This document shows, in pieces, positions 28,864 to 57,821 of a stretch of DNA of 64,000 nucleotides. Where the stretch lies: positions 1,010-65,009 of the forward strand of contig JBAZKA010000004.1 in the NCBI GenBank assembly GCA_041651015.1. Reading direction: 5' to 3'. A model generated the notes under the pieces. The model was not told where the DNA came from and made no database searches. It was given only the letters and a program-made list of their open reading frames with translations. The position numbers and the translations under genes are program-made. Within the stretch, counting starts at the first letter, position 1. Each line of letters opens with the position of its first letter. The DNA comes from Patescibacteria group bacterium (GTDB lineage: Bacteria; Patescibacteriota; Patescibacteriia; Magasanikbacterales; GWA2-37-8).

Positions 28864-29003
28864 GGTTCAGATAAAAACGCGCCCAAACAGGCGCCCCGCT
28901 CACGGTTCAATATTACCTTACTCAAAGAGTAAAATCAAGGGAATATATTCATTGATTTATCCCCACATATTTGATAAAATTAACCAATAATAACTCATAC
29001 AAT

Positions 29004-30485
29004 ATGAAAAAATATCTATTAGAAATAATCGTTTTCGTTTGCGGCGCGGTGGTGATGATACTGGAACTCGCGGGCTCCAGAGTGCTCGCGCCATACCTCG
29101 GCACGTCGCTCATCGTCTGGTCCAGTTTGATTGGCCTGATTCTCGGCGCTTTAAGTTTCGGTTATTGGTGGGGTGGGAAAGTCGCGGACATTAATCCAAA
29201 CTGGAAAACATTTTCTGGAATAATTTTTTTGGCCGCTGTTCTTATTGGCATAACGGCGATTTTAAAAGAACCAATTTTGCTTTTGTTTGACGAGATAATT
29301 AATAACATAAAAATAAACTCCGTTCTTTCCACTACCATTCTATTTGTACCGGCGAGTATTATGCTCGGCATGATTTCGCCTTATGCCGTGCGCCTAAAAA
29401 TCAACGACGTACAAAACTCGGGTAAAACCGTGGGTAATTTATATGCAATATCCACTTTGGGCAGTATTTTCGGCACATTTCTCGCGGGATTTTATTTGCT
29501 GGCAACTGTTGGCGCGACCATGATATTATACATTCTTGCCATCACTCTAATTTTTATTTCCATAATTTCATTTTTCAAATCAGATTTAAAAATCAAAGCC
29601 GCCACTATCATCATTCTGATTTGTTTCGGTTCGTTCACCACGGCCATGAATATATTGGCGGCACAAAACGGGACGATTGACACTGACTCAAGTTATCAAC
29701 ACATAAAAATTTTTGACGGAGTAGACGCATCTTCAGGCCGGACCGCGCGCTACTTAAAAACCGAAAATGTCGGTACGCAATCCGGAATGTTTTTGGACAG
29801 CGATGATTTGGTTTTTGGCTACACCAAATTTTATGATTTATACAGATATTTAAAACCAGATGCCAAAAACGCGCTAATGATCGGGGGCGCGGCCTACACA
29901 TATCCCAGATATTTTTTACGCAATACAACCGGGACGACTATGACTGTGGTGGAAATTGACCCAAAAATCACCGAATTGGCCAAAAAATATTTTGGTTTAA
30001 CCGATGACCCGCGAATGAAAATTGTTCATGAAGACGGCCGGGTATTTCTGAACGGCAACACGGAAAAATTTGATATAATTTTCGGCGACGCGTTCAAATC
30101 ACTCACTCCCCCATACCAACTTGCCACCCGAGAAGCCGTAGAAAAAATTTATGAAAATCTAAACGATGACGGAGTCGCGCTCATCAACATAATTTCCGCA
30201 ATAAACGGAGATAAAGGAAAATTTTTGCGCGCTGAATACGCCACCTACCAATCTGTATTCCCCGAGGTGCAAATATTTCCGGTGAGGGAGCCGAATAACG
30301 GCGAAATCGTGCAAAACATCATGCTTGTCGCCTTAAAAAACAAACGCGCCACCTGGAATGGTGGCGACGCTCAAATGCAAATTTTGTTGGATAACCGATG
30401 GACAAAATCTATTGATAACGACTTGCCGATCCTCACTGATGATTTCGCGCCGGTGGACCAATATATGCTCAAGCAGGTTTTCTAA
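29004..30485 (+). CDS. Fused multi-TM / spermidine synthase-like (SpeE-fold methyltransferase) membrane protein
   Basis: Multiple N-terminal TM helices followed by GGAAYTYPRYF...VVEIDPKITELAKKYFGL...DIIFGDAF (spermine/spermidine synthase family signature). Start at MKKYLLEII (ATG 29004). Confidence 0.7.
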   Translation: MKKYLLEIIVFVCGAVVMILELAGSRVLAPYLGTSLIVWSSLIGLILGALSFGYWWGGKVADINPNWKTFSGIIFLAAVLIGITAILKEPILLLFDEIINNIKINSVLSTTILFVPASIMLGMISPYAVRLKINDVQNSGKTVGNLYAISTLGSIFGTFLAGFYLLATVGATMILYILAITLIFISIISFFKSDLKIKAATIIILICFGSFTTAMNILAAQNGTIDTDSSYQHIKIFDGVDASSGRTARYLKTENVGTQSGMFLDSDDLVFGYTKFYDLYRYLKPDAKNALMIGGAAYTYPRYFLRNTTGTTMTVVEIDPKITELAKKYFGLTDDPRMKIVHEDGRVFLNGNTEKFDIIFGDAFKSLTPPYQLATREAVEKIYENLNDDGVALINIISAINGDKGKFLRAEYATYQSVFPEVQIFPVREPNNGEIVQNIMLVALKNKRATWNGGDAQMQILLDNRWTKSIDNDLPILTDDFAPVDQYMLKQVF

Positions 30486-31410
30486 ACTTTCTCCGCAATA
30501 AACATAGTATCCGTCCAACTAAAATAACACAAAACGCGATGATAGCAACGCGCATCCACACATCTAAATTTTTATACCAAACAACTTGGCCGGCCGGTTC
30601 AACACTTTCTATCCGCTCATTACCCGCTTTATCCACGGCCTTAATCAAAATATGGCTCTCTAAATTTTGGTCAGATAATACTAGCGGGCTGCCCACTTCG
30701 CGCCACTTGGCAAATGTTAAACCAATCCGGCTCTTGGCCGATTTTTTTTCATAGCGGTCAATTCCCGAATTCTTGTCTTGAGCCGTAAAAGACAAGAACC
30801 ATCGGTTATCAAAAATTTCAGGCGAACGGTCAATGATCGGAGTAAATGATTCCGGTGGGTCCACGTCCTCCCAAAAATTAACTTCTTGTCCGATGAGTTT
30901 CGGTTGTATACCCACGCCTTCGTTGACAATGAATTCCCACTCAGTTGAACTCACTTCCGTCGGCGTGCCCAAACCATCATTTTTTAAAATTAATAAATCA
31001 GAAAAAATTATTTTACCCGCGCCCGAGGCAACGGCTCTAAATTTAATATCAAATAACTTTCCCTTGGTTCCATAAAACCCGCCGGGCGTTACTCCAGAAA
31101 AAAATATGCCGAAATAATCCGGCGCCGGTTTTCTTACCCACAAATTAATAACCGAACCGCCGTCGCTGATGTCAATTAACTCCAGCGACTTGGGAAAGAA
31201 AACTTTACCCTCAAACGCATTCAAAACTTCTTCGTCGGTATTTAAATACACCGAGACAAATAGCTCATCATCAACCGAAACAGTCGGCGTTTGTGATTCA
31301 AAATATAACTGCGCGCAACGCGCCTCCGGCGTATTAAACGCGAAAATATAAGCGACAACAATCGCCGCGAAAATAAATCTCAAATAAATATTAAAAATTT
31401 TATGCGCCAT
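30469..31410 (-). CDS. Membrane-anchored cohesin-domain protein (scaffoldin-like)
   Basis: N-terminal signal, ~140-aa region LYFESQTPTVSVDDELFVSVYLNTDEEVLNAFEGKVFFPKSLELIDISDGG...GKLFDIKFRAVASGAGKIIFSD that parallels type-I cohesin beta-sandwich signatures, C-terminal TM (VAIIAFCVILVGRILCLL) plus basic tail. Confidence 0.5.
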   Translation of the reverse strand: MAHKIFNIYLRFIFAAIVVAYIFAFNTPEARCAQLYFESQTPTVSVDDELFVSVYLNTDEEVLNAFEGKVFFPKSLELIDISDGGSVINLWVRKPAPDYFGIFFSGVTPGGFYGTKGKLFDIKFRAVASGAGKIIFSDLLILKNDGLGTPTEVSSTEWEFIVNEGVGIQPKLIGQEVNFWEDVDPPESFTPIIDRSPEIFDNRWFLSFTAQDKNSGIDRYEKKSAKSRIGLTFAKWREVGSPLVLSDQNLESHILIKAVDKAGNERIESVEPAGQVVWYKNLDVWMRVAIIAFCVILVGRILCLLRRKFRKPA

Positions 31411-31420
31411 GTAAATTTTA

Positions 31421-32500
31421 TCAGCCGGTCCAATAATAGGCCATTATACTAAAATCCGTTAAATTTATTTTATCATCGGCGTTAAGCTGTTCCGCTTCTT
31501 TTAATATAAAAGTGTTGCTCAATGTTCTTTTGTACCAATAGGCGGCGATGGAAAAATCCACCAAATTCACACGGCAATCGCCATTCAAATCACCCTTAAG
31601 AATTTTACCATCGCACAACTGTTTAGCCACCACGGTTGACGAGCCGATCTTAAAATTAACGATTTTACTAAACGGGCTAACCTGAGTTTTATAAAACGAT
31701 TGGGCTTTCGCAAAATAATCACCCAGTATTAGATCGGTCGTATCCAAAGTATAGGCATACGCGCCGGCCGCGTTGGTCTTGACCTTTACAGAAATTATTT
31801 CTGTGGAACTCACGATAAGGTTTACATCAACCCCGGGCAAGGAGTGGCCGGAAAAATTTATACTTTCCCCCTTTTTCACTTCGCTTTTGTCGGCCCAGAT
31901 GGTCGGAGCAATATATATTCCACTCACGGTAGTCACCACGCCTTCTGTCACATTTAAAGTAATGGTTTGCATGGCGGAACGGAAATCACCGCCATCAACC
32001 GAATACACCCCGAAGACATAGTTGCCCCCGGTTATTTTTAGAACGCTGGCGGAAAAATTTCCGGCGGCATCAGCCATTGTAGTAGTGGCAATTTGTCCAT
32101 CGCGCAAAATTACTACTTGCCCGAATGGATAGGCAATACCCATAAAATTTACTTGGGTGGCGACCGGCACAGTGACAACTCCACCTCCCCCACCACCCCC
32201 GCCACCATGATGCGGGGCGATATATTCACACAACGAGGCATCATAATCACAAGCAATGGTGCAGGATACCGTGCCACTGGTATAACCGAGCGACGCGCAA
32301 CTGCCACCGCCCATATCGGCGCCGTCGCATTGTTCCGGGCCTTCGGCCACGCCATCACCGCAAACAGAAATTTCCACATTAGCATTCACATAAGAATTTG
32401 TGGCAGCGGAAGCTTTTTGGATAATAACAAAACCGCCGACGATCAGTGTGAGCGTCAGCGGCGCGAAAAACAATAAAGTTGAACGCAGTTTCGAATCCAT
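31421..32500 (-). CDS. Secreted Cys-rich-repeat / Ig-like protein with C-terminal dockerin
   Basis: Signal peptide. CGDGVAEGPEQCDGADMGGGSC...C (myxo-type cysteine-rich repeat pattern). Poly-Gly linker. C-terminal GDLNGDCRVNLVDFSIAAYWY ... LNADDKINLTDFSIMAYYW, i.e. two dockerin Ca-binding repeats. Confidence 0.55.
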   Translation of the reverse strand: MDSKLRSTLLFFAPLTLTLIVGGFVIIQKASAATNSYVNANVEISVCGDGVAEGPEQCDGADMGGGSCASLGYTSGTVSCTIACDYDASLCEYIAPHHGGGGGGGGGVVTVPVATQVNFMGIAYPFGQVVILRDGQIATTTMADAAGNFSASVLKITGGNYVFGVYSVDGGDFRSAMQTITLNVTEGVVTTVSGIYIAPTIWADKSEVKKGESINFSGHSLPGVDVNLIVSSTEIISVKVKTNAAGAYAYTLDTTDLILGDYFAKAQSFYKTQVSPFSKIVNFKIGSSTVVAKQLCDGKILKGDLNGDCRVNLVDFSIAAYWYKRTLSNTFILKEAEQLNADDKINLTDFSIMAYYWTG

Positions 32501-32512
32501 TTTTCAATGAAA

Positions 32513-33124
32513 TTATTCCTCTTTTTTCTTTACGCTAATACCGATATTAAACGAAAAGAATTTACGTATAAGCAGTACCACAATGACAAACGCAATCGCT
32601 CCGAGCAAAACCAAACTCCACGGATAATACAATTTGTAAAGCGAGGTCAAGCGATAATAAACTCCCACAAAAAAATTCGCCGGCGCGACGCTAAAATACA
32701 ATTTGGTCGCGGCCGCCACACCAACAGAGGTCTCTCCGGCCACTGATGCTTTCTTGGCCGGGTGTCCTTCAAGATACGCAAAATATTCGCCCGGCTCAGC
32801 GCCTTTTAATGGCAAAGTCAGTCTAACTTGCACTAATTGCGCTTTGCCCGGTTCCAGATAAAATGTTGATGGCTGGAAACTTAACCATTCGCGAGGCGGC
32901 ATTTTTTGCGGTTGAGTGGTGTTGTATTCCACTGAGACACCATACTCTGAGGCTTCGTCGCCGGTATTGATCACGGCAAATGAAGGCAGGTCATAAATTA
33001 GACCGGCTTTCATAGCCTCAGGCACTTCAATCTTTCCCGTGCCCACCCCAACGCCGACGCTGGCCATGGCTGCTATCGGTAGCAATAATATTCCCCCCAC
33101 TATTGCGGCAATATATTTATTCAT
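32513..33124 (-). CDS. Surface protein: signal peptide + beta-sandwich-like domain + C-terminal TM anchor (CscA/DUF916-like architecture)
   Basis: MNKYIAAIVGGILLLPIAAMA signal. C-terminal LVLLGAIAFVIVVLLIRKFF TM with charged tail. Domain assignment by architecture only. Confidence 0.4.
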   Translation of the reverse strand: MNKYIAAIVGGILLLPIAAMASVGVGVGTGKIEVPEAMKAGLIYDLPSFAVINTGDEASEYGVSVEYNTTQPQKMPPREWLSFQPSTFYLEPGKAQLVQVRLTLPLKGAEPGEYFAYLEGHPAKKASVAGETSVGVAAATKLYFSVAPANFFVGVYYRLTSLYKLYYPWSLVLLGAIAFVIVVLLIRKFFSFNIGISVKKKEE

Positions 33125-33167: not shown

Positions 33168-33680
33168 TTAGTGAGCGGCGGCAGACACTGTGACCACCAT
33201 TGATTGTTGGGTATAATCTGCCACGGCAGTAGGAGTATTTATCAACAAGTCCATAGACTGCGTCGGAGTGGTCGTAGTCAAATCAGATTTCATATTGGTA
33301 TAAGTGCTGGAATTCATCGCCGTATAATTTGCGGCGCTGGTGCATGTCGTGGTGCAAAATTTATGCACATAAATACTGGAACCGGCCGTTGATGATAAAC
33401 CCCAGTTGCCGGGAGTGGTGGAAGAGCCTCTCACGGTTAAGTCCACTGATACGTTACCGTTGTTGGTGACAGTTTGCGTGTCAATGGTGGTGGTAGTGCT
33501 TTTAATCGTGTTGAGCGCCATCGTGCCGTAAGCCACAGTTCCATCCGTAACAGTTACGGAAATATTTTCCACTGTCACGGTCGCGGCCACATTACCGGTT
33601 GTGGCGGCCCAAACTACTGAGGCGGCCGAGACAGCCGCAAATCCCACAACGAATGCTACCAAGAGAAATGCCTTTTTCAT
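33168..33680 (-). CDS. Small secreted protein homologous to the C-terminus of the adjacent giant protein (WxL-like / TasA-like module)
   Basis: Signal MKKAFLLVAFVVGFAAVSAASVVWAATTGN. VTVTDGTVAYGT...TVTNNGNV...NWGL...YVHKFCTTTC...NYTAM aligns with giant-protein residues ~1440-1590. Confidence 0.55.
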   Translation of the reverse strand: MKKAFLLVAFVVGFAAVSAASVVWAATTGNVAATVTVENISVTVTDGTVAYGTMALNTIKSTTTTIDTQTVTNNGNVSVDLTVRGSSTTPGNWGLSSTAGSSIYVHKFCTTTCTSAANYTAMNSSTYTNMKSDLTTTTPTQSMDLLINTPTAVADYTQQSMVVTVSAAAH

Positions 33681-33889
33681 ATTATTAAAAGATTATTAAT
33701 AATTTATAGTAGTGTTTACAACACTATTTATTTTTGCTTGATAAAAAATTTATTTTCTCCCCTCTAACTACAATTCGCTCCAGTATATTATACACCAATT
33801 TTACGTTTCTAAATACGGCCAGTTATCCACAGGGCTTCGCTACGCTACCTGCCTGCCGGTAGGCAAGCGCCCCGCAAACGCAACTTCGT

Positions 33890-36800
33890 CTATGATTGGG
33901 TCGCGAGCAATGTCACATCCACATCCTGCTCACCATAACAAGTGGAAGCTGAGGGAGCGGTGAGACGTAATTGAAATTGGGTGGTACCATCCGCGGCCAC
34001 ATTGGTATCAATATTTTGGTAGGTGGTAGTCATGGCCGTATAGTTGGTCGGCGGGGACGAACAATCTAAATCCGTGTCATTACAAAACCGATGTACGTAT
34101 TGGTCTGCGCCGTTTGAAGTCGCGAGCGTCCACGTGCATCCCCCGCCCGAACCATCTTGCCCTTTGATGGCAAAATCTTCGGTCACATTACCGTTATTGG
34201 TGATTGTTTGCAAATCGCCAAGGTCAATCGTGCTCACACTGGAATTTTCCGCAATGGTTCCATAGCTCACAACTCCGTCGGAAACAGTGACAGACACAAC
34301 CGGCGTAACGGAATTTACTTCATCGTAATCTTTATCAATCGTAGTTGTGATAGCGTTAAGCGAGGTGGTGCAATAACCCCATTGCCAAAAAGTAAAGGTG
34401 GTTGAGGCACCAGCCGGCAAATCATCCCAACGCCGAACGAAATATATATCATCAGCTTCATTTGTTGATTTAACCGCCACTTGAAGCGGCCATTCAATGG
34501 TGGAACTGACCGGGGAGTGTTGAAAATAATAACCGTAAGTCGCCGGATCATCCTGGTCAAAAATCACACCCATGGCCGCCCAGATACCGGTATCGTAAGT
34601 TGTAAACCATTTTTTGGTTAACGATGACATGGTGATTTGACGTTCTACCGTGCTGCTCGTCGTTTCACCGGCCACCCAACCCTTATCATTAGTATTACGA
34701 TCAGTACCAAGCCATTGCTCGCGACCCCAAACTAACGGATAATCATAAGCTGTGGAACTGGCATTGGTAAAAGTGTAAACATTTTTTAAATAACGTTTAC
34801 TGGCATAAAATGTTTGGTATCGGTATGCGTCAATGCCGGTAGCCAGTTGTTGCGCCCAACCATTGGCTGCGCCATCCGAATGCACCAAAGTGGTGATGGA
34901 ATTATCGTCCTCGCTGACAATGTAATTCGCCCATTCATCTTGTTTCCATTTAATATCGCCGGCATAATATCCGGAACTATCTATCCTTACTGTATCATTC
35001 ACAACGACAGCCGTGCGTTCCATACAATCCAAGTTCACGTCATTGTCACTGCTATTGCGGCAAGACATCTCCACCTGTTCGCCCGCGCCTTCATAGCCGC
35101 CGCCAAACATTGGTGTGTTGATAAACTGATTGGCAAATACTAAGCCATTATAAAATAAACGCTCACCGATATTATATGTATATAAACGATCATAACGCGT
35201 GGCAAACAAATCAGTGTCCGAAGTAAAAGAAAAAGCCACTGTTTTATAAGTCGTACCCATGGAATTATCTTGGATATATAACGTATGATGGCCGCTATCC
35301 CACCACCAACAATCCGTAGTGGAAGCAGCGGTCCCTTCTGAAAGAGCCGTGCCGGCCAAGGACACCGATGTGATATTAATATCACTCGTCGTCGGATGGA
35401 ACGGAAAAGCAATCGCGACATTGGAATAGGTAGCCGCGGCATTGACGGAAAAATCCGCCACTTCGTAATTCCAATGGTCAACGCTCCAAGTGGGATTAAA
35501 CTCGGCGCCATTGCCCATGGCCGCGGTGCTGATGGCATTCCATCGCCGTGTAATATATGTGGTAAAATTTGCCGTGGTCGTTGAATAATCAATTGATGAA
35601 AAATTTGAACTGCTGGATAATTGCAAAGTGGTTCGAAACGTGCCGGTATTTGGATCGGCACAGCCATTGCAAAAATTTGAACCCGGGTAAATTACCCCTT
35701 CATAACGTCCGTCAATGGCATCCCATGTCAAATTTGTGTAAAGATTATCCCCCACGGAATTGGTGGTACTGGCTCGCGCATAAGGATAATCAAGATAACT
35801 CAAGCCATTCAAAGTCATATTGACGGGAATGGCGCCGCTCCAACCATCAGAAGTCTTGCCAATGGAACCGGAAATAGTGGGAAGAGCAAACACGGTGGAA
35901 CCGGAAATTGCGACTGTGCTGGAAGGTCCGGTGGTACCACTGCTCACCGTCACGCCGGTACTGGGATCGGAAATTTGGATTTCCAATGTTTCTCCCAAAG
36001 TAGCACCCGAAGCAACATCCAACACTGTATAAACACACATCGCCGAAGTGGTGCTGATACCGACCGAACCGGAAAATGTTGAAGTGCCATTGGCGGCGCT
36101 AAACCCATCGGTATCAGTGGAGCCAAATTGAGTTTCCGTACCGCCATAACTTTCCGAAGCGCAATCATACGGTGTGGTAGCGTCTAAATCGTAATAAAGT
36201 TTAATGTTATCCAAATCAGTTTGCGCATCCACGGTGCCATTTTCAAAAATACTAATACCGGTGACATTGCGCGAGCCGGCGTTTTCAATAATGGAAAAAT
36301 ATCCGCCGACATAATTATCAGTGGAAGGAATGGTCATGCCCGTGGCTTGACTGCCTCCGGTACCGACAGTGACAGAACTGACCAGAGCGGTGGAACCGGT
36401 AATGGCCACTGCGGACGACGGCCCGACCGCGCCGCTGCTGATCGTCACGGCCGTGCTGGGATTGGTAATTTGAATTTCAATTGTTTGCCCTTCGCCCGCG
36501 CCCGAGCCCACATCCACAACCGCATAAACGCACATGGCTTGGGCCGAGGTCACGGCCACGGTTCCGGAAAATGTTGATGTCCCGTTGCTAGCGCTAAAAC
36601 CATCAGTATCAGTGGAGCCATATTGAGTCTCGGTGCCATTATAACTAACAGATGCGCAATCATAAGGCGTCACTGTATCTAATTCATAATATAATTTGAT
36701 ATTATCTAAATTATTTTGCGCGTCCACGGTGCCGATTTCATTTATGGATATACCGGTGACATTGCGAGAAGTGGCATCGCCGACAATGTAGAAAGCGCCG

Positions 36801-38668
36801 CCGACATAATTATTGGTTGATGAAACGACCATGGTCGCGGTTTGATTGCCAGTGGTTCCAACCGTCACGTTGTTTGAAGAAGCATTATAAGTCGCGTAAA
36901 TGGAATATTTCAAAGCGCCTAGTGTCGGCGAGGTAAACGAGGACGGCCAGGTGCCGTATGTTTGCGTCTTTGACAGACTCTGATTTGTGGCGCCAGTAGT
37001 ATAATAAAAATAATTTTGGCTGTCATTATCATTTTTTAACAACCAATAGGTGGAACTGCTGATAGTCGGCGAGGTTGATAATTTATAGGCATACCAAGCT
37101 TTTGTGGTGCCGACAGCGGTAGACGCCGAATTCGCCACCAAATTATAGCTGGAATTATAGATACCATAACCCGCATAGTAGCCGGAATCCGGATACATAT
37201 AGGCGGTGGTTGTGACGACTGTAGCGCCGGCCGCGCCCGAGCCGGAATCAAATTTTGAACCGACCATTCTTCCATTTATTGACGAAGTATAACTCGTCCC
37301 GGCCGTGGTGTTGCCAAAGGTCGGGTCAACGATTACCGGATAAACCGCCTCATCCAAAAAATATTGCGGCACGGTGATGGTCATTTTTCCGCTAACCTCG
37401 TCAATATTTAATTCGCACCAAGTATATCGTCCGCTCGCGTCAAATGCCTGCGGACGATAAATTGAAAACGCCATGCCGGTGCCATAATTTTTGCCACCCA
37501 TGGCTGAGTAATCTCCTTGCAAACCGCCCTTATAATAAACCGCGTAAGACCCAACCACGTTTATCGGACGATGATATTCATGGCATTCGGTCGGACTGCA
37601 ACTTGGGTCGCTCATTTCCACATTCAAAGGCGGCTGATAGAAAAACTCTAAATTTTCCGTAGCAATATCAAATTCAAAAACATTAGTGCTCGGTTTTGTC
37701 TTTAAAGCAAATTCAAATTCATAACCATCAACATTTTCACTCATCCCGTCGGAATATTTTTCATTCGGGATAGTGACAGTTTTATCATAAAAAATATATT
37801 GACGATGCGATGTTTCATATTTGATAACTTTCTCTTCGCCCAATTCATCTCTGTCAATAAACAATGCTTTCTCGGTGGACACACTTGAATCAGACAATGG
37901 TTCGTTCAGGATAGTGGAAAAATTTGCGAAAATTGCTTCTTCACCCTGAGAGTATTGAGTAATAGATACGACATCTTCACTCGGAGTATTAGTCGGGGTA
38001 TCAACGACAGTTGTGTCGGTTAAAACAGTTTCTTCGCTCAAAACCGTATCCGCCGTAGTAGTAGTGATACCGGAGTCACCAGTGACTGTGTCATCACCGG
38101 TTTCCGGCGTCAAAATAATACCTGAGGATGTCGCGACCTCCGCCTCCACCTTTACACCCAACACTTCGGCCGGCGCTTTTGTCTCTACCAAGGTATTGCC
38201 TGATATTTCCCCCTCAAACTTCGGAATTATTTTCATACTCGCTTCCCCATCCCAGCGTTCAATGGTTATTGCCGGAGAAAACGAATCGCCTTCGGGCGCG
38301 CCGATCTTGTAGGCCACACCGTCAATTTCTTTGGCCGGCAAAACAAAGGCTGATCCTTCCTGGCGATATTTGTCACGCAATGGCGAGGCGGCTAATTTAC
38401 GAGACAAAGAGATTGAATCCATAGCGCTTTCATCCGGAGCAAACAAACTGGCTGTCACAATTCCGACCAAGGAATTATCCTGATACCAAGGTATGTTTGA
38501 TGCAGCCGAACGCGTATCGCTCCACACCGGCCAGCCGTATACAAAAACAGCGATGAATACGCCCAAACAGGCGAAAATAATCGCTTTTTCAAAAAATAAT
38601 TTATTTTTTAGATACGTCAAAAAATTTCGCCGCATAAAAGAACTAAATCCATTTTTATTTTTTCTCAA
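33890..38668 (-). CDS. Giant membrane-anchored surface protein (1592 aa) with internal tandem ~160-aa repeats and a C-terminal WxL-like/TasA-like module
   Basis: N-terminal TM (AIIFACLGVFIAVFVYGW). Ser/Thr/Gly-rich beta-rich sequence. C-terminal ...VSVTVSDGVVSYGTIAENS...TITNNGNV...CTWTLATSNG...YVHRFCNDTDLDC...NYTAM. Start overlaps the stop of the upstream gene (translational coupling). Confidence 0.6.
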   Translation of the reverse strand: MRKNKNGFSSFMRRNFLTYLKNKLFFEKAIIFACLGVFIAVFVYGWPVWSDTRSAASNIPWYQDNSLVGIVTASLFAPDESAMDSISLSRKLAASPLRDKYRQEGSAFVLPAKEIDGVAYKIGAPEGDSFSPAITIERWDGEASMKIIPKFEGEISGNTLVETKAPAEVLGVKVEAEVATSSGIILTPETGDDTVTGDSGITTTTADTVLSEETVLTDTTVVDTPTNTPSEDVVSITQYSQGEEAIFANFSTILNEPLSDSSVSTEKALFIDRDELGEEKVIKYETSHRQYIFYDKTVTIPNEKYSDGMSENVDGYEFEFALKTKPSTNVFEFDIATENLEFFYQPPLNVEMSDPSCSPTECHEYHRPINVVGSYAVYYKGGLQGDYSAMGGKNYGTGMAFSIYRPQAFDASGRYTWCELNIDEVSGKMTITVPQYFLDEAVYPVIVDPTFGNTTAGTSYTSSINGRMVGSKFDSGSGAAGATVVTTTAYMYPDSGYYAGYGIYNSSYNLVANSASTAVGTTKAWYAYKLSTSPTISSSTYWLLKNDNDSQNYFYYTTGATNQSLSKTQTYGTWPSSFTSPTLGALKYSIYATYNASSNNVTVGTTGNQTATMVVSSTNNYVGGAFYIVGDATSRNVTGISINEIGTVDAQNNLDNIKLYYELDTVTPYDCASVSYNGTETQYGSTDTDGFSASNGTSTFSGTVAVTSAQAMCVYAVVDVGSGAGEGQTIEIQITNPSTAVTISSGAVGPSSAVAITGSTALVSSVTVGTGGSQATGMTIPSTDNYVGGYFSIIENAGSRNVTGISIFENGTVDAQTDLDNIKLYYDLDATTPYDCASESYGGTETQFGSTDTDGFSAANGTSTFSGSVGISTTSAMCVYTVLDVASGATLGETLEIQISDPSTGVTVSSGTTGPSSTVAISGSTVFALPTISGSIGKTSDGWSGAIPVNMTLNGLSYLDYPYARASTTNSVGDNLYTNLTWDAIDGRYEGVIYPGSNFCNGCADPNTGTFRTTLQLSSSSNFSSIDYSTTTANFTTYITRRWNAISTAAMGNGAEFNPTWSVDHWNYEVADFSVNAAATYSNVAIAFPFHPTTSDINITSVSLAGTALSEGTAASTTDCWWWDSGHHTLYIQDNSMGTTYKTVAFSFTSDTDLFATRYDRLYTYNIGERLFYNGLVFANQFINTPMFGGGYEGAGEQVEMSCRNSSDNDVNLDCMERTAVVVNDTVRIDSSGYYAGDIKWKQDEWANYIVSEDDNSITTLVHSDGAANGWAQQLATGIDAYRYQTFYASKRYLKNVYTFTNASSTAYDYPLVWGREQWLGTDRNTNDKGWVAGETTSSTVERQITMSSLTKKWFTTYDTGIWAAMGVIFDQDDPATYGYYFQHSPVSSTIEWPLQVAVKSTNEADDIYFVRRWDDLPAGASTTFTFWQWGYCTTSLNAITTTIDKDYDEVNSVTPVVSVTVSDGVVSYGTIAENSSVSTIDLGDLQTITNNGNVTEDFAIKGQDGSGGGCTWTLATSNGADQYVHRFCNDTDLDCSSPPTNYTAMTTTYQNIDTNVAADGTTQFQLRLTAPSASTCYGEQDVDVTLLATQS
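35880..36860 (-). repeat. Two tandem ~480-490-bp coding repeats inside the giant surface gene
   Basis: Protein copies share ...NYVGG(A/Y)F(Y/S)I(V/I)...SRNVTGISI.ENGTVDAQ..LDNIKLYY.LD..TPYDCAS.SY.GTETQ.GSTDTDGFSA.NGTSTFSG... DNA at 35931-36045 vs 36421-36540 and at 36181-36330 vs 36665-36810 is clearly related. Confidence 0.6.
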
Positions 38669-39044
38669 TCTTCTTCGCCATTTTATAAATTTTGCCGGCT
38701 GTGGCCGAAACAGCTCTGTCCACCGCTTCTTTCGCTGATTCAGTATAATCCTCGGATTTATCCTCGGCCCAACTCTTTGCTTTTTTAATGGCCGCGTCTT
38801 TGACCGCCGTGCCCACTCCCTTGAACACCGAATTCATGGCAAAAGAAATCATCTCCACTTTTTCTTGGATAAAACCGATGGCGTCGGCCAAGGATTGCAG
38901 GCGGACGCGAAATTCTTCAATAATTTGGCTGGTATTTTTCAAAATTTTGCCCGCGTAATAAAACATCCAGCATAAAAAAACCGCCACCCAAATAATACAA
39001 AAAGAAATCACGATATACAAAATATCTTTTGATGATTCTATCAT
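38655..39044 (-). CDS. Small membrane protein with N-terminal TM and coiled-coil tail (DUF948-like), first gene of the surface operon
   Basis: LYIVISFCIIWVAVFLCWMFYYAG TM. Lys/Ala-rich helical tail. Stop overlaps the giant gene start. Confidence 0.45.
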   Translation of the reverse strand: MIESSKDILYIVISFCIIWVAVFLCWMFYYAGKILKNTSQIIEEFRVRLQSLADAIGFIQEKVEMISFAMNSVFKGVGTAVKDAAIKKAKSWAEDKSEDYTESAKEAVDRAVSATAGKIYKMAKKIEKK

Positions 39045-52302: not shown

Positions 52303-52977
52303 ATGGCGATTGACGAGGCGGACGAAAAACTTGAAAAAGAACGGACAGATGCCGCGCGCCTCGCCGAGGTACGCGCCGCCGACCGCCATCGCGCCGAGGT
52401 TGCCATGCAATCTCAAAACGAGGAGCGCAATCGCGCGCCATCCACCAATGAAGAATTTCCGGAACTGGTGAGGCAAACCGAATATGGCGGCATACAAAAT
52501 GAATCCATTGATGAAAATCAAGACGAGGACACGGAAGATGAAAATTCCGAAGAAGGACAACCGGGAACACAGCAAACATCACGCGACATTGCCAACGCGG
52601 CCGCCCAACAAGACCGCGTCAGCCGAATGTCAAACATACAATCCGGTTCCAGAAAACGAGAACAAGAAATTAAAAGAAGATCCGAGCGACGCGTCGTTGA
52701 AATGCAAAATGACACCAAAAAACAACAAAAAATCGCCGAGGCCGCGAATATTTCTTGCTTCAAACTCGCCGTCGGCTGCATCTTGTGGATCATTCCGTTC
52801 TTTGGTTGGGCCGTCAAGATAATTATACGCATTAGGGATACCAAGGCGCGAATTGACGCGGCCAAAGCCAAAATCAAAATCGCAAAACTGGAAGAGGATA
52901 TTAAAAAAGAAAAGAAAAAAATGCAAGACGACCTGAAAGAAATGCAACGACAAGCGGTGCAACAAATGCAAAAATAA
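52303..52977 (+). CDS. Hypothetical acidic/charged protein with one TM and a C-terminal coiled coil
   Basis: Starts 1 nt after the clpC stop. TM CFKLAVGCILWIIPFFGWAV. KARIDAAKAKIKIAKLEEDIKKEKKK coiled coil. Confidence 0.5.
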   Translation: MAIDEADEKLEKERTDAARLAEVRAADRHRAEVAMQSQNEERNRAPSTNEEFPELVRQTEYGGIQNESIDENQDEDTEDENSEEGQPGTQQTSRDIANAAAQQDRVSRMSNIQSGSRKREQEIKRRSERRVVEMQNDTKKQQKIAEAANISCFKLAVGCILWIIPFFGWAVKIIIRIRDTKARIDAAKAKIKIAKLEEDIKKEKKKMQDDLKEMQRQAVQQMQK

Positions 52978-53022
52978 ATAGAACTCAACCGCACGCTAAA
53001 ATATAAACAGGGAACAGTTGCC

Positions 53023-53065
53023 GAACTTTACAAACTTTATAACTTTACAAACTTTATAACTTGAT
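53023..53065. repeat. AACTTTAYAA repeat array abutting the start codon of the 53067 gene
   Basis: gaactttacaaactttataactttacaaactttataacttg. Paralogous to 13519-13558. Confidence 0.55.
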
Positions 53066-53066
53066 T

Positions 53067-54299
53067 ATGTCAGATAGAACAAAAAGAATTTTACTAATCG
53101 TTGCGCTTCTCACCGTCACCGCTCTGCTTGCTTTCGCACTTTATTATTTTTTCAAACAAGCCGGACCTCTCGCTGAAGTGACTCCGGGCGAACAAGGCGC
53201 CACCACGACCGGCGTCGGAGCCGGACTACCCTCGGCCGGCGGACGCGCCACCACGACCGGCGAAGGCGGCGGCGCCACCACTACTTTGCCAATTGCCGGA
53301 AATATCCCGAGTGCGTCACAAAGTTATTATCGCACGCAAGCAGTCACCAAAATCGCCAATGTTCAAACCACTTATAATTCAGCGGACAAATCCGGCGGCA
53401 TGCGTTATTACAATGCTAATGACGGAAAATTTTATCGCGTAAACGCGGATGGCACTATCACGGCCATGAGCGATACAGTATTCAATAATGTTTCCAATGT
53501 CACTTGGGCCGATGGCGCGGACAAGGCTGTGCTGGAATATCCGGACGGATCAAACATTGTTTATAATTTTGAGACGCAAAAACAAGTGACCCTGCCCAAA
53601 CACTGGGAAGATTTTTCATTTTCGCCCGACAGCACGCAGATTGCCGCCAAATCAGTGGGTTTATCCGAAGAAAATCGTTGGCTCGTCACGACTAATGATG
53701 ATGGCTCGGGCACACAGTTGTTGGAAGCGCTGGGAGAAAATCAAGACAAAGTGGTCGTAGATTGGTCGCCCAGCCGGCAGGCTGTGGCCTTTGCCTTTAC
53801 CGGCGATCCCTTGGGTACTTATCGCAAAGAGGTTTTACTTGTCGGCTTGAACGGAGAAAATTTCAAATCCCTGACGGTTGAAGGTATGGGCTTTACTTCA
53901 CAATGGTCGCCAACCGGCAAAAAATTATTATACAGCGTTTACAGCCCGCGCACGGATTTGAAGCCCGAACTCTGGATTACCAATTCTTATGGCAACGACA
54001 TTGGTTCCGGACGCACCAGTCTGGAAATAGAAACCTGGCCGAGCAAATGCACTTTTGCCGGAGACAGTACGGTTTATTGCGGCGTGCCACAGACCTTATC
54101 CCAAGGCGCGGGAATTTCCCCGGCCATTGCCGCCGGCACCACTGATGATTTATACAAAATTGATTTAACCACCGGATTAAAAACAAAAATCGCGACCGAT
54201 GGTACTTATTCCATCAGCACGATTTCTTACGACGAGACAAACAAACGTTTACTCTTTACCGACGCCAACCAAAGCGGCGTGTTTGAAGTAAGTTTATAA
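53067..54299 (+). CDS. Secreted beta-propeller (TolB/PD40-like) protein
   Basis: N-terminal TM/signal, Thr/Gly-rich linker, repeated Y/W-containing blades (..WADGADKAVLEYPDGSNIVYNF.., ..DWSPSRQAVAFAF.., ..QWSPTGKKLLYSVY..). Confidence 0.5.
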   Translation: MSDRTKRILLIVALLTVTALLAFALYYFFKQAGPLAEVTPGEQGATTTGVGAGLPSAGGRATTTGEGGGATTTLPIAGNIPSASQSYYRTQAVTKIANVQTTYNSADKSGGMRYYNANDGKFYRVNADGTITAMSDTVFNNVSNVTWADGADKAVLEYPDGSNIVYNFETQKQVTLPKHWEDFSFSPDSTQIAAKSVGLSEENRWLVTTNDDGSGTQLLEALGENQDKVVVDWSPSRQAVAFAFTGDPLGTYRKEVLLVGLNGENFKSLTVEGMGFTSQWSPTGKKLLYSVYSPRTDLKPELWITNSYGNDIGSGRTSLEIETWPSKCTFAGDSTVYCGVPQTLSQGAGISPAIAAGTTDDLYKIDLTTGLKTKIATDGTYSISTISYDETNKRLLFTDANQSGVFEVSL

Positions 54300-54303
54300 A
54301 ATT

Positions 54304-54975
54304 ATGAACGCCTCAGCTAAAAAATTTTTCCTTTTATTGGTTGTCGCTATCGTTGGCACGGTCATAATTTTAATTTACCAAATTATTAAGACAAACAAAA
54401 TTTCCGTCAATCACGCGGACAAGGATTTGATTGAAACCAATGCCGTGGATATTCCGATTGACCCACTGGACCCAATTATCGGCAACCGCGGCGCGAGTAT
54501 TACCATCACCGAATTTATTGATTATACCTCGGCCGATAGCCGTGATGTCCACAAAAAATTAGTCGCGGCTGTGGAGAAAAATCCCACCAAACTTCGTTTG
54601 CTTGTCAAAGATTTTCCAGCCACGGGTTTGTTTGCGGGCGATCATGCTCGCCCAAATCTGGCGGCCTATTGCGCCGAGAAACAATCCATGGATAAATTTC
54701 TCGCTTTTGTGCCGGAACTAATCAGCGCCAATAAAAAAACATTTACCGATGACGATTTGAAAACTATCGCGAACAAAATCGGTCTAAATGAAACCGCGTG
54801 GTCGGCCTGCTTGAATTCCACCGAGGCCGGCGCGCGCATTGATTCCTCGGTCTCGCTCGCGAAAACACTCGGATTAAAAAATGCCCCGCAAATCTATATC
54901 AACAACCGCTTGGTAAATTATTTGGATGAAATTGACTTAGATGATTTCCTCGCGGAGTTGGTGAAGGAATATTAA
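54304..54975 (+). CDS. DsbA-like thioredoxin-fold protein lacking the CxxC motif
   Basis: ITITEFIDYTSADS where DsbA proteins have ...EFxDYxCPxC. Downstream AAYCAEKQSMDKF and APQIYINNRLV match DsbA-family helical-insert and C-terminal regions. Confidence 0.55.
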   Translation: MNASAKKFFLLLVVAIVGTVIILIYQIIKTNKISVNHADKDLIETNAVDIPIDPLDPIIGNRGASITITEFIDYTSADSRDVHKKLVAAVEKNPTKLRLLVKDFPATGLFAGDHARPNLAAYCAEKQSMDKFLAFVPELISANKKTFTDDDLKTIANKIGLNETAWSACLNSTEAGARIDSSVSLAKTLGLKNAPQIYINNRLVNYLDEIDLDDFLAELVKEY

Positions 54976-54979
54976 GTTT

Positions 54980-56455
54980 ATGAAAAAACTTTTTACAATT
55001 ATTTTTCTCGGCGGGTTTTTGTTTTTGCCGATGACGGCATTTGCAAAAAGTTGTTGCGTTTGCAAAATGTATTCTGCCGGCGAATCTGTAAGCACGGCCA
55101 GCCGCGCGTTTAATACCATCACGGATGACACAGACGCCAAGTGCACGACAGGTAAAAAAGATGAGTTGAACGCGGGTGTCACCCTATCCTATTATACTTG
55201 TTCAATCGCGGAAAACGCTGGCTGTGAGGTAGAAGAAGCTACACCGGAGATGACCACCATCGCTGAAGAGCTCGGCTTAAAGGATGTCGTTCTTGGCATT
55301 AACATCCCGAGTTTGCATTTTAGCGCGCCACCCACTAAAGTTGACTCGGAAGGCAATCTGTATATTTCTTGGGCCGCCGAATACATCAAAGCAATTTACA
55401 ATTTTGCTCTGGTCGCCATCAGCATACTAGCTGTTGTCGTCTTAATTATTTCCGGCGCGCAAATTATCACTTCAGCCGGCGGTCCAGCTAAAGGCGCGGC
55501 TTACAAGCGCATCACCCAAGCCATCATCGGACTGTTCATTGCTTGGGGTTCTTATGTCGTGCTTTATACCATCAACCCGGATTTGATCGCTTTGAAATCG
55601 CTGAAAATTGCGTATGTACAAAAAATTGAAATTGAAGTTGTATCTGATGCAGACTATAAAACACTTACTGGAAAATCTCCCGGCGCACCAGCTGAATTAT
55701 TAAAAATGGCAGTTGAAGCTGGAAAAAAAATCGGGCTCACTGATGATTGCATGATGAAAACAATCGTCAGCAAAGAATCGGGAGGCAATGCGGGCGCTAT
55801 TGGCCATGACGAAAATTTTAATCGTACGACTCATATTGTCTGGGCGCGACGAAATTTTCTTTTGAGCGGAACCACATATAAAGGATCTTCGTTTACACCG
55901 GTAGCGACCGACAAAAGTAATTACAAAGCAACGATGAACGCAAGCGGTATAAAAAATGATGATTCGTTTAACGTAAATAATCCTCCTGATTATGGACTTG
56001 ACTGGCGTTTTTCTCACGGTATCGGCTTGGGACAAATGACTATCAATCCAAACAAAAGTATGGGGGGGTATAATTCATGTGAAACCACCAGAGCCGACGG
56101 CAAGACTGAACGAGGTATTAGCAAAGGCGGAGAGTGTATAGGCATATCAAAGCTTATGGAACCAGAAACTGCTGTTGAACAGTCGGCTAAATTATTTAAA
56201 AGCAATCTTGAATGTGCGGCCGGTCTTGGACTTTCCGGCGAGGAACAATTTAGAGGCGCTTTATTTGCTTATGCGGCGGGTTGCGGGGCATTAAAAAAAT
56301 TAGGCGGATCTTTGCACTCTACTCTACAAACACATAAGACGGTCACGCGCGCGATGACATATTATACAGCCTGCAAAGCGGATTCAAGTATCGGCCCCGA
56401 TAGCGCCCCGGAGCAATCACCCGTGGCTACCTCCGATGATGAAGAATCAAATTAA
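54980..56455 (+). CDS. Membrane protein with Cys-rich N-terminal region, two-TM VirB2/TrbC-like hairpin and C-terminal lytic transglycosylase (SLT) domain
   Basis: Signal peptide, CCVCK.. cysteines. Two hydrophobic helices separated by GGPAKGAAYKR. SLT catalytic region ...SKESGGNAGAIG... and ...GIGLGQMT... Confidence 0.55.
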   Translation: MKKLFTIIFLGGFLFLPMTAFAKSCCVCKMYSAGESVSTASRAFNTITDDTDAKCTTGKKDELNAGVTLSYYTCSIAENAGCEVEEATPEMTTIAEELGLKDVVLGINIPSLHFSAPPTKVDSEGNLYISWAAEYIKAIYNFALVAISILAVVVLIISGAQIITSAGGPAKGAAYKRITQAIIGLFIAWGSYVVLYTINPDLIALKSLKIAYVQKIEIEVVSDADYKTLTGKSPGAPAELLKMAVEAGKKIGLTDDCMMKTIVSKESGGNAGAIGHDENFNRTTHIVWARRNFLLSGTTYKGSSFTPVATDKSNYKATMNASGIKNDDSFNVNNPPDYGLDWRFSHGIGLGQMTINPNKSMGGYNSCETTRADGKTERGISKGGECIGISKLMEPETAVEQSAKLFKSNLECAAGLGLSGEEQFRGALFAYAAGCGALKKLGGSLHSTLQTHKTVTRAMTYYTACKADSSIGPDSAPEQSPVATSDDEESN

Positions 56456-56459
56456 TATC

Positions 56460-57821
56460 ATGTCTTCAAAACCTCAAACAATATTCTCTTGCAACAACTG
56501 CGGCGCCCAGTTCCAGAAATGGACCGGGCGTTGTTTGGAATGCGGAAAATGGGGCACGATAGATAAAGAAGCCAAAATCATTCGCGAGAAAAAATCTGAA
56601 ACAAATGAATACGCGCCGGCGAAATTATCCTCGCTCTCGGAAATAAAAAGTGAAAATGCCGCACGCGTGAAGACAAATATAAATGAACTGGACCGCGTGC
56701 TCGGCGGAGGACTGGTACCGGGCAGTATTATTTTACTCGGCGGAGAGCCCGGCATCGGCAAATCCACGCTCGCGCTTCAGCTCGCTTCCCTACTCCCGAG
56801 TTCGCTTTATCTCTCAGGCGAAGAATCAGCCGAACAAATTAAACTCCGCGCCGACCGTTTGAGCGTCAAAGCGCAAAATCTGAAAATCGGAAATGAATCA
56901 AACATTGAAACAATCATCAGCACGATTAAAAAAGAACGTCCGCAAATTACCATTGTGGATTCGGTTCAAACAATTTATTCCGATGAGTCCGTTGGCGAAG
57001 CCGGCAATCTGGCGCAAGTGCGCGCCTGTACCGTCAAACTTATGGAGCTGGCCAAGTCCGAGCATTTAACGATCGTGCTGATCGGGCAAGTGACCAAAGA
57101 AGGCACGGTGGCCGGACCAAAAACTTTGGAACATTTGGTGGACACTGTTCTATATTTAGAGGGTGATAGATTTCATCAATTCAGAATTTTGCGCGCAGCC
57201 AAAAATCGTTTTGGCTCCACTGATGAAGTCGGAGTTTTTTCCATGGAAGAAAACGGTTTGCAAGAAGTGAAAAATCCTTCGGCCGCGTTCCTGGGCGAAC
57301 GGGCGGAAAACGCACCGGGCAATGTGGTGGCGTGCCTGATGGAAGGCACCCGGCCGATTCTGTGCGAAGTACAAGCCTTGGTCAATAAAACCGCGTTTGG
57401 TTATCCGGTGCGCAAATCAAATGGCTTTGATTTGAATCGTCTGCACATGCTCGTGGCCGTCCTGGAGCGCCGGGCCGGATTAAATTTATCTCAATACGAT
57501 ATCCATTTAAATATTGTCGGCGGTCTCACGGCCGATGAGCCGGCGGCCGACCTCGCGGCCGCTCTGGCCATTGCCAGCGCTTACAAAGATAAATCCCTTG
57601 GATCGGACATGGCTGCCTTTGGCGAGATTGGCTTGTCCGGCGAAATTCGTCCGGTCTCTTTCACGGAAAAAAGAATCAAAGAATGCGAAGGCCTCGGGCT
57701 CAAACGCGCTCTGACCAATTTGGGAAAAAAGAATAATCAGAATGTCATCCCCGCGAAGGCGGGGATCCAGAAAATTAAAATCATTGATATAAAAAACATT
57801 TCAGAAATTATACGAATATAA
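56460..57821 (+). CDS. radA: DNA repair protein RadA/Sms
   Basis: Zinc finger CNNCGAQFQKWTGRCLECGKWG. Walker A GGEPGIGKST. KNRFG motif. Lon-like C-terminal domain. Confidence 0.9.
   Translation: MSSKPQTIFSCNNCGAQFQKWTGRCLECGKWGTIDKEAKIIREKKSETNEYAPAKLSSLSEIKSENAARVKTNINELDRVLGGGLVPGSIILLGGEPGIGKSTLALQLASLLPSSLYLSGEESAEQIKLRADRLSVKAQNLKIGNESNIETIISTIKKERPQITIVDSVQTIYSDESVGEAGNLAQVRACTVKLMELAKSEHLTIVLIGQVTKEGTVAGPKTLEHLVDTVLYLEGDRFHQFRILRAAKNRFGSTDEVGVFSMEENGLQEVKNPSAAFLGERAENAPGNVVACLMEGTRPILCEVQALVNKTAFGYPVRKSNGFDLNRLHMLVAVLERRAGLNLSQYDIHLNIVGGLTADEPAADLAAALAIASAYKDKSLGSDMAAFGEIGLSGEIRPVSFTEKRIKECEGLGLKRALTNLGKKNNQNVIPAKAGIQKIKIIDIKNISEIIRI

Follow-up and report, generated by a model that had tools for sequence, protein, structure and literature searches.

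We analyzed a 64,000-nucleotide (nt) stretch of DNA, hereafter the window, from a Patescibacteria group bacterium (GenBank assembly GCA_041651015.1, contig JBAZKA010000004.1, positions 1,010 to 65,009), which carries on its minus strand a run of five genes, L-S-C-D-H, reading from window position 38635 to 30469, that was previously unannotated as an operon and whose products are candidates for building a surface fiber. These genes encode a giant protein (L; 33893 to 38635, 1581 amino acids [aa] from an ATG at 38635; MFA5128108.1 in NCBI, a hypothetical protein), a small protein of 170 aa (S; 33168 to 33680), and three further proteins, p203 (C; 32513 to 33124), p359 (D; 31421 to 32500), and p313 (H; 30469 to 31410).

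A sequence-only reading of this DNA had claimed that S duplicates the C-terminal module of the giant, and pairwise alignment bore this claim out: residues 46 to 167 of S aligned with residues 1464 to 1589 of the giant with 51/128 identical positions (40%), 59% positives, and an E value of 1e-21 (BLASTP, composition-based adjustment). The five peptide pairs on which the claim had been built were all found in the translations, and the two open reading frames (ORFs) lie where that reading had placed them, both on the minus strand (33168-33680, 170 aa; 33890-38668, 1592 aa when the giant is read from a TTG at 38668). The remaining local matches of S within the Ser/Thr-rich giant all had E values of >4, and thus composition is not the cause of the similarity. 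A low-complexity artifact was likewise rejected, given the E value that remained after composition adjustment and the conservation of positions throughout the family. The likeness of S and the giant is a true domain duplication.

An exhaustive profile search revealed that the module family comprises, at 50% identity, 1756 clusters when E ≤ 1e-3 is required and 954 when the threshold is E ≤ 1e-10. The family is bimodal, with small proteins covering the whole profile and large ones matching from profile position ~28-40 onward; the large members among the top 150 profile matches span 230-1581 aa and carry the module at their C-terminal end. Invariant or near-invariant residues of the module include W93-T-L95, N73, N76, and P150, with the W of the W-T-L motif present in 99-100% and the L in 96-97% of members. 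Close homologues of S numbered 66 (160-194 aa), and the few with a taxon name belonged to the candidate phyla radiation (CPR)/Patescibacteria (Daviesbacteria, WWE3). Moreover, S and L modules from the same locus were more alike (50%) than cross-locus pairs (43%), which suggests co-evolution. An ancient, clean split of small-type versus large-type modules was considered and found no support, in view of mixed nearest neighbors and the greater closeness of same-locus pairs.

Scanning of species-representative genomes yielded 80 loci, the ORFs of which were searched by iterative hidden Markov model searches (jackhmmer). These loci came from Microgenomates (Levy-, Davies-, Roizman-, Woese-, Collier-, and Pacebacteria), Dojkabacteria, WWE3, and many Parcubacteria. 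The commonest arrangement was L-S-C-D-H(-DH), found complete in 29/80 loci, most of the others being partial versions of it. Co-occurrence was counted in the 62 loci with at least 3.5 kb of sequence downstream of S, where we found C in 60, D in 52, H in 47, both D and H in 46, and H without D in 0. For instance, a cassette from Ca. Daviesbacteria encodes a large protein of 365 aa, a small one of 173 aa, and then three that are 245, 216, and 338 aa long; all are homologous to their counterparts in the window. The conserved set L-S-C-D-H contained no usher-like gene. Named record titles among the 80 loci refer to Patescibacteria lineages, and some automated titles of metagenome-assembled genomes (MAGs) name other phyla. 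The latter MAG records, which carry the CPR-type operon under titles such as Gammaproteobacteria, Pseudomonadales, Planctomycetota, or Clostridia (loci L004, L013, L019, L028, L033, L077, L078, and others), are probably mislabeled automated bins.

S consists of a signal peptide (aa 1-25), a donor-like strand (aa 26-40, ATTGNVAATVTVENI; 33561 to 33605, minus strand), and an immunoglobulin (Ig)-like core (aa 41-170). The putative donor strand ranks with the family's most conserved stretches, V31, T34, and T36 being invariant; its consensus is AA.TA.V.ATVTVQN-ISV (short form V.ATVT.QN), and the window version contains VAATVTVEN. Lying directly after the signal peptide, this strand reaches 2.4-4.0 bits per position in S proteins, on par with the best core positions, compared with 0.5-1.4 bits per position for the region upstream of the module in L proteins. 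It alternates small or hydrophobic residues (V-x-A-x-V-x-V), and comparable N-terminal extensions are seen in FimG (ADVTITVNGKVV) and FimF (ADSTITIRGYV). The motif [VI].A[TS][VI].[VIL] occurred within the first 70 aa of 54/81 S and 35/65 D proteins, relative to 0/62 L, 0/59 H, and 0/17 DH proteins and 16/3149 other ORFs.

When S was modeled as a monomer with AlphaFold2 (pLDDT 92, pTM 0.74), aa 26-40 were not paired with any sheet, and the first core strand began just after them. When this model was compared with the PDB by means of Foldseek, 20 of the 21 top matches were chaperone-usher pilins or other donor-strand fiber subunits, including the CS20 major subunit (probability 0.99), PapE with its donor peptide (0.98), FimA rods, CsuA/B, FimG, CfaB, and cannulae; these matches were modest, with E values of 7e-3 and above and TM scores of 0.3-0.5. 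PDB sequence searches with S and with the S family profile returned nothing significant, the small family gave no hhalign alignment to FimA alone, and no sequence similarity to Fim or Pap pilins was detected. The modeled fold of S appears pilin-like, which by itself is not decisive, and we propose S as the major pilin.

The giant starts with a signal peptide or anchor, continues as a variable body rich in Ser/Thr, and ends in the C-terminal module (about aa 1455-1592 in the 1592-aa numbering; 33893 to 34306, minus strand). The module of the giant lacks the conserved N-terminal strand, and we propose it to be an acceptor-only pilin-like domain. The module ends no more than four residues from the C terminus in all 62 large homologues. 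These L proteins range from 228 to 3010 aa, with N-terminal parts of ~90 to ~2,870 residues that are not conserved between loci; that of the window giant recurred as three ORFs in 3/81 sources searched, the window's own giant among them. No Pfam, NCBIfam, or PDB sequence match was found for the giant, including its N-terminal 1,440 residues. Within it, two tandem repeats of 162 aa each (35888 to 36868, minus strand; aa 601-762 and 766-927 in the 1592-aa numbering) share 69% identity (E = 2.5e-64, BLASTP) and have no family match. We propose the giant as a tip adhesin. Some "large" proteins (L033, 4147-5562; L011, 6027-6713) have a second, partial module match near the N terminus and could be two-module subunits. 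With regard to the start of the window giant, initiation at the TTG at 38668 would create an overlap with an upstream ORF of 129 aa (38655-39044); this ORF and another one of 100 aa upstream of the giant are not conserved in related loci.

The third protein, p203, begins with a signal peptide, which is followed by a PapD-like Ig domain (aa 28-146), then by an amphipathic helix, and finally by a C-terminal membrane helix (aa 169-189). All four elements are seen in its model (pLDDT 81), where the Ig domain has eight strands. Periplasmic chaperones of the PapD type in chaperone-usher systems have two Ig domains, the residues R8/K112, and a G1 donor strand. Pfam PapD_N matched 13/75 members of the C family (best E = 2e-4), and some members bear the IMG label "P pilus assembly chaperone PapD." We compared the family with an alignment of 19 diverse chaperone-usher chaperones (FimC, MrkB, PefD, Caf1M, FaeE, a PapD homologue, and others), widened with plasmid-borne ones, and obtained an hhalign probability of 81.4% (E = 1.2e-5) over 127 columns, i.e., the whole of chaperone domain 1. 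More specifically, the conserved segment IGVGVGTGK31I of C aligned with the A1 strand GVALGATR8VIY, placing K31 opposite R8 of FimC, and the conserved segment sIGVAAAAK141LYF..P aligned with the G1 strand LQLAI.SRIKLFYRP. These A1-like and G1-like segments are among the most conserved and least confidently modeled parts of p203, as may be expected of strands that become ordered only on binding of a partner. PDB sequence searches with p203 and with the C family profile returned nothing significant. We propose p203 as a candidate membrane-anchored chaperone.

Following C, p359 carries a signal peptide, a donor-like strand (aa 33-46, ATNSYVNANVEISV), a Cys-rich domain, a poly-Gly linker, Ig-like domains, and a dockerin (aa 302-354). 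In D proteins the strand right after the signal peptide resembles that of S (the window version just given; others include TVNATIKISV and VVSATVTLAI), and it is followed by a Cys-rich domain of the four-disulfide type, a variable linker or Ig domains, and the C-terminal dockerin. Dockerin_1 (PF00404) matched 34/60 D members (best E = 6.4e-8). The last gene product, p313, has a signal peptide, a cohesin-like domain (about aa 33-150), and a membrane helix (aa 280-309), and Cohesin (PF00963) matched 30/52 H members (best E = 3.1e-9). At the level of families, a cohesin and a dockerin are encoded together; the window copies are weak. We propose D as a donor-only terminator and adaptor, and H as a membrane anchor binding the dockerin of D. 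H proteins of Microgenomates (e.g., L001, 11484-12500) have a CxxC...CxxC zinc-ribbon-like segment between N-terminal membrane segments, from which the window H differs in having a signal peptide and a C-terminal membrane helix. Parcubacteria loci often add a sixth gene, DH (~440-940 aa; e.g., L025, 13546-15555; L026, 12239-15052; L072, 12996-14738), the product of which matches both the dockerin-family and the cohesin-family profile and could be a scaffoldin-like adaptor. In loci without D and H, we found ORFs of 76-96 aa near S and C that encode only a signal peptide, a donor-like strand, and a short tail (L021, 10571-10810; L027, 6279-6569; L035, 11164-11394; L046, 2511-2753; L076, 11040-11330). 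Four of these five ORFs immediately follow C, and all are possible minimal fiber caps.

We consider, with moderate confidence, that the operon most likely builds a surface fiber by chaperone-assisted donor-strand exchange without an usher, in which the giant would form the tip adhesin, S the shaft, D the terminator, and H the anchor. All five proteins would be exported by Sec. C, as a one-domain, membrane-tethered relative of PapD/FimC, would hold unassembled subunits by lending them its G1-like strand. As the shaft subunit, each S would insert its strand (VAATVTVEN) into the core of the previously added subunit. Because L lacks the strand, it would act as a strand acceptor only and is placed at the distal tip, where its long, lineage-variable N-terminal part may serve as an adhesin. 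D, having a donor strand and no acceptor core, would end the fiber at the base, and its dockerin would bind the cohesin of the membrane protein H, thereby tying the fiber to the cell. That no usher is encoded agrees with a cell envelope lacking a conventional outer membrane. As predicted from sequence, the roles of the operon's products make up the complete logic of a donor-strand-exchange fiber, i.e., tip, shaft, terminator and anchor, and chaperone. The sequence-only reading had also raised the idea of major and minor fiber subunits, which agrees with the conservation of the operon, the asymmetry in donor strands, and the pilin-like fold.

Several observations weigh against this fiber. We infer polymerization from the asymmetry of the sequences only, and the small and large modules are not reciprocally monophyletic. 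The hhalign probability for a chaperone is 81%, not above 95%; the C family compared with FimC alone gave an insignificant result (0.4% probability), and near the second key lysine the register is uncertain by two residues. The strand of D could be just the first strand of the Cys-rich domain. Moreover, the dockerin of the window p359 scored 19.3 bits, under the Pfam cut-off of 22.9, and the window p313 had no Cohesin match of its own at E ≤ 0.01, its assignment having been made through the family by jackhmmer.

The main rival, which we hold to be unlikely but the most serious of the alternatives, is a nonpolymeric surface complex similar to WxL clusters that displays the giant, the incomplete sandwich of the module being completed by a strand of C or of S in a 1:1 or short complex. 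WxL clusters of Firmicutes encode a small WxL protein, a large WxL protein, and WxLIP (DUF916-DUF3324-TM), and WxLIP is predicted to complete the sandwich of the WxL domain by strand insertion (PMC10599100). In layout, the WxL cluster is a good architectural analogue of our operon: both have a domain-only small protein, a large protein that ends in the domain after variable N-terminal domains, and an adjoining Ig-like protein with a C-terminal membrane helix (PMC10599100), and one W-T-L motif is conserved in our module. The sequence-only reading had noted a resemblance to WxL domains and, for the N terminus of S, to TasA/SipW-like proteins. Neither assignment held. Profile scans with WxL (PF13731) and Peptidase_M73 gave no match for the window proteins at E ≤ 0.1 and none in any of the 66 family members at E ≤ 1, by which membership in both families was rejected; no Pfam or NCBIfam model matched S or the giant at E ≤ 0.1. 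Further differences from WxL clusters are that the module has a single W-x-L motif instead of the two by which WxL is defined, and mature S has no second Trp; that C has one Ig domain instead of DUF916 plus DUF3324; and that the operon belongs to another phylum and shows no sign of peptidoglycan binding. In addition, S holds both a donor strand and an acceptor core, as a polymer needs, and its best fold matches are pilins, whereas the extra genes, for a donor-only protein (D or a short ORF) and for anchoring by a cohesin-dockerin pair, would have no explanation in a WxL-like complex.

Less probable still is a chaperone-free matrix fiber resembling TasA or archaeal threads, in which S would self-assemble outside the cell by donor-strand complementation while C, D, and H do other jobs, such as adhesion or matrix organization. 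TasA/TapA/SipW fibers of Bacillus and archaeal filaments (ABP, threads, cannulae) share with S jelly-roll or Ig-like subunits and an N-terminal donor strand, and the fold of S is moderately similar to that of their subunits. Unlike those systems, however, the operon has no Peptidase_M73 match, no SipW peptidase, and no SipW-type signal peptide: the NCBIfam model for SipW-cognate signal peptides did not match S at E ≤ 0.1, and no signal peptidase was encoded among the conserved operon genes or the scanned window ORFs. It does possess a PapD-like chaperone candidate, which the TasA and archaeal systems lack; C stands beside S in 60/62 loci, its alignment with chaperone domain 1 takes in the A1 and G1 strands, and D bears the donor motif together with an anchoring dockerin. 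We regard as very improbable a third explanation, that the module is a shared cell-wall- or carbohydrate-binding domain (similar to carbohydrate-binding modules or WxL) anchoring S and L independently, and without interaction, to the envelope or to host glycan, since it accounts neither for the strict asymmetry of L and S in the N-terminal strand, nor for the strand motif common to D, the conserved PapD-like partner, and the tight operon, and since the greater closeness of same-locus S and L modules suggests that they co-evolve.

To our knowledge, the Pam pilus is the only CPR pilus of the donor-strand-exchange kind described to date. Troman et al. (June 2026) determined the structures of two filaments from Ca. 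Mycosynbacter amalyticus, a member of the Saccharimonadia, and described Pam pili as consisting of the pilins PamA/B/E, the tip PamT, the chaperones PamC/D, and the anchor PamR (bioRxiv 10.64898/2026.03.03.709456). The Pam pilins have two domains (39-55 kDa) and are joined by donor-strand exchange; PamC/D are membrane-anchored PapD/FimC-like chaperones, PamT is a single-domain tip pilin without a donor strand, and PamR is a membrane-anchored terminator that inserts its N-terminal strand (10.64898/2026.03.03.709456). The Pam genes share a conserved neighborhood with ATP synthase genes, and the preprint mentions neither cohesin nor dockerin (10.64898/2026.03.03.709456). The principle of donor-strand exchange in CPR is therefore already known from Pam, which supports the fiber that we propose. 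Both systems are CPR-restricted, Sec-exported (in our operon by prediction), and without an usher, and in both an Ig-like acceptor is preceded by a highly conserved strand that is donated in Pam and a putative donor in S, the tip (proposed, in our case) has no donor strand, and PapD/FimC-like chaperones are tethered by a C-terminal membrane helix. The Pam terminator is tethered to the membrane and inserts an N-terminal strand, and the terminator we propose, D, likewise bears a strand.

In contrast to the two-domain pilins of Pam, however, the shaft subunit S would consist of only one domain of ~145 aa, which carries the strand at the extreme N-terminal end. The chaperone-like C has a single Ig domain where the Pam chaperones have two; the proposed tip is a multidomain protein that varies and is often giant; the proposed terminator bears a dockerin and would pair with the cohesin of a separate membrane protein; and no ATP synthase gene was found among the scanned window ORFs. 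The operon differs from Pam in every component, as set against Pam's published description. The language-model matches to "PamA" that the preprint (10.64898/2026.03.03.709456) reports in Microgenomatia could be the same as our L family.

Similarities to the chaperone-usher pili of Gram-negative bacteria (Fim, Pap, and the archaic Csu/CupE) include the donor-like strand directly after the signal peptide, the probable homology of C to chaperone domain 1, and the best fold matches of S; likewise, the giant is comparable to the tips FimH and PapG, which combine a binding domain with a pilin domain lacking the donor strand. Differences are the lack of an usher and of an outer membrane, a candidate chaperone that is membrane-anchored and has no domain 2, the lack of detectable pilin sequence similarity, and the proposed use of a cohesin-dockerin pair as the anchor. 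As in cellulosomes, neighboring genes encode a secreted protein ending in a dockerin and a cell-bound protein with a cohesin. Unlike in cellulosomes, there are no glycoside hydrolases, the dockerin protein starts with a putative donor strand of the pilin type, and the cohesin is anchored by membrane helices, not by SLH domains or sortase.

CPR/Patescibacteria make up a large share of bacterial diversity, and most are thought to be attached to host cells; little is known of the machinery by which they attach, and annotation labels their surface proteins hypothetical. We tentatively suggest, as a possibility somewhat short of our expectation for the fiber itself, that the operon represents a second class of CPR pilus, wider-spread and simpler than Pam: an usher-less donor-strand-exchange fiber with a one-domain pilin, a one-domain tethered relative of PapD, hypervariable and sometimes giant adhesins for host specificity, and a cohesin-dockerin fastening not described before. 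Under this suggestion, C would be a monoderm-type relative, possibly a precursor, of chaperone-usher chaperones and WxLIP. If our proposal of a fiber is right, it would offer an attachment organelle open to testing, with a variable tip protein that may determine host range; a minimal form of chaperone-dependent strand exchange without an usher, bearing on the origin of chaperone-usher pili; and a new use for cohesin-dockerin pairing. It would also make five families of hypothetical proteins annotatable in thousands of metagenomic genomes.

The 209-nt gap between the L and S genes (33681 to 33889, minus strand) includes a box resembling TATAAT and a GC-rich stem that lacks a U-tract. The length given for it earlier was right, but the promoter-like sequence and the hairpin that had been pointed out there did not rise above background: promoter-like sites numbered 24, compared with 19.8 ± 4.5 in shuffles, and the RNA fold of the gap had a z of -0.18. 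On these grounds, an internal promoter or terminator in the gap was rejected. Of the gaps in the operon, that between L and S is the longest when loci are compared, with a median of 75 nt versus 35, 5, and 3 nt at the following junctions, which leaves room for a possible separate regulation of the shaft gene. This length is the one feature that favors the higher expression of S suggested by the sequence-only reading.

In the window, the operon is flanked by pheST, dnaE, a spermidine synthase gene, and other housekeeping genes. A fused gene of the major facilitator superfamily and spermidine synthase (28971-30485, plus strand) converges on the operon, overlapping the 3' end of p313 by 17 nt. 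Farther away, four ORFs of 224-491 aa lie at 52303-57821 (plus strand); three of these, all except that at 56436-57821, were scanned and had no Pfam match. A DsbA/thioredoxin-like gene (54304-54975) is situated amid these ORFs and may be of relevance, given that cysteine pairs are conserved in the pilin-like proteins.

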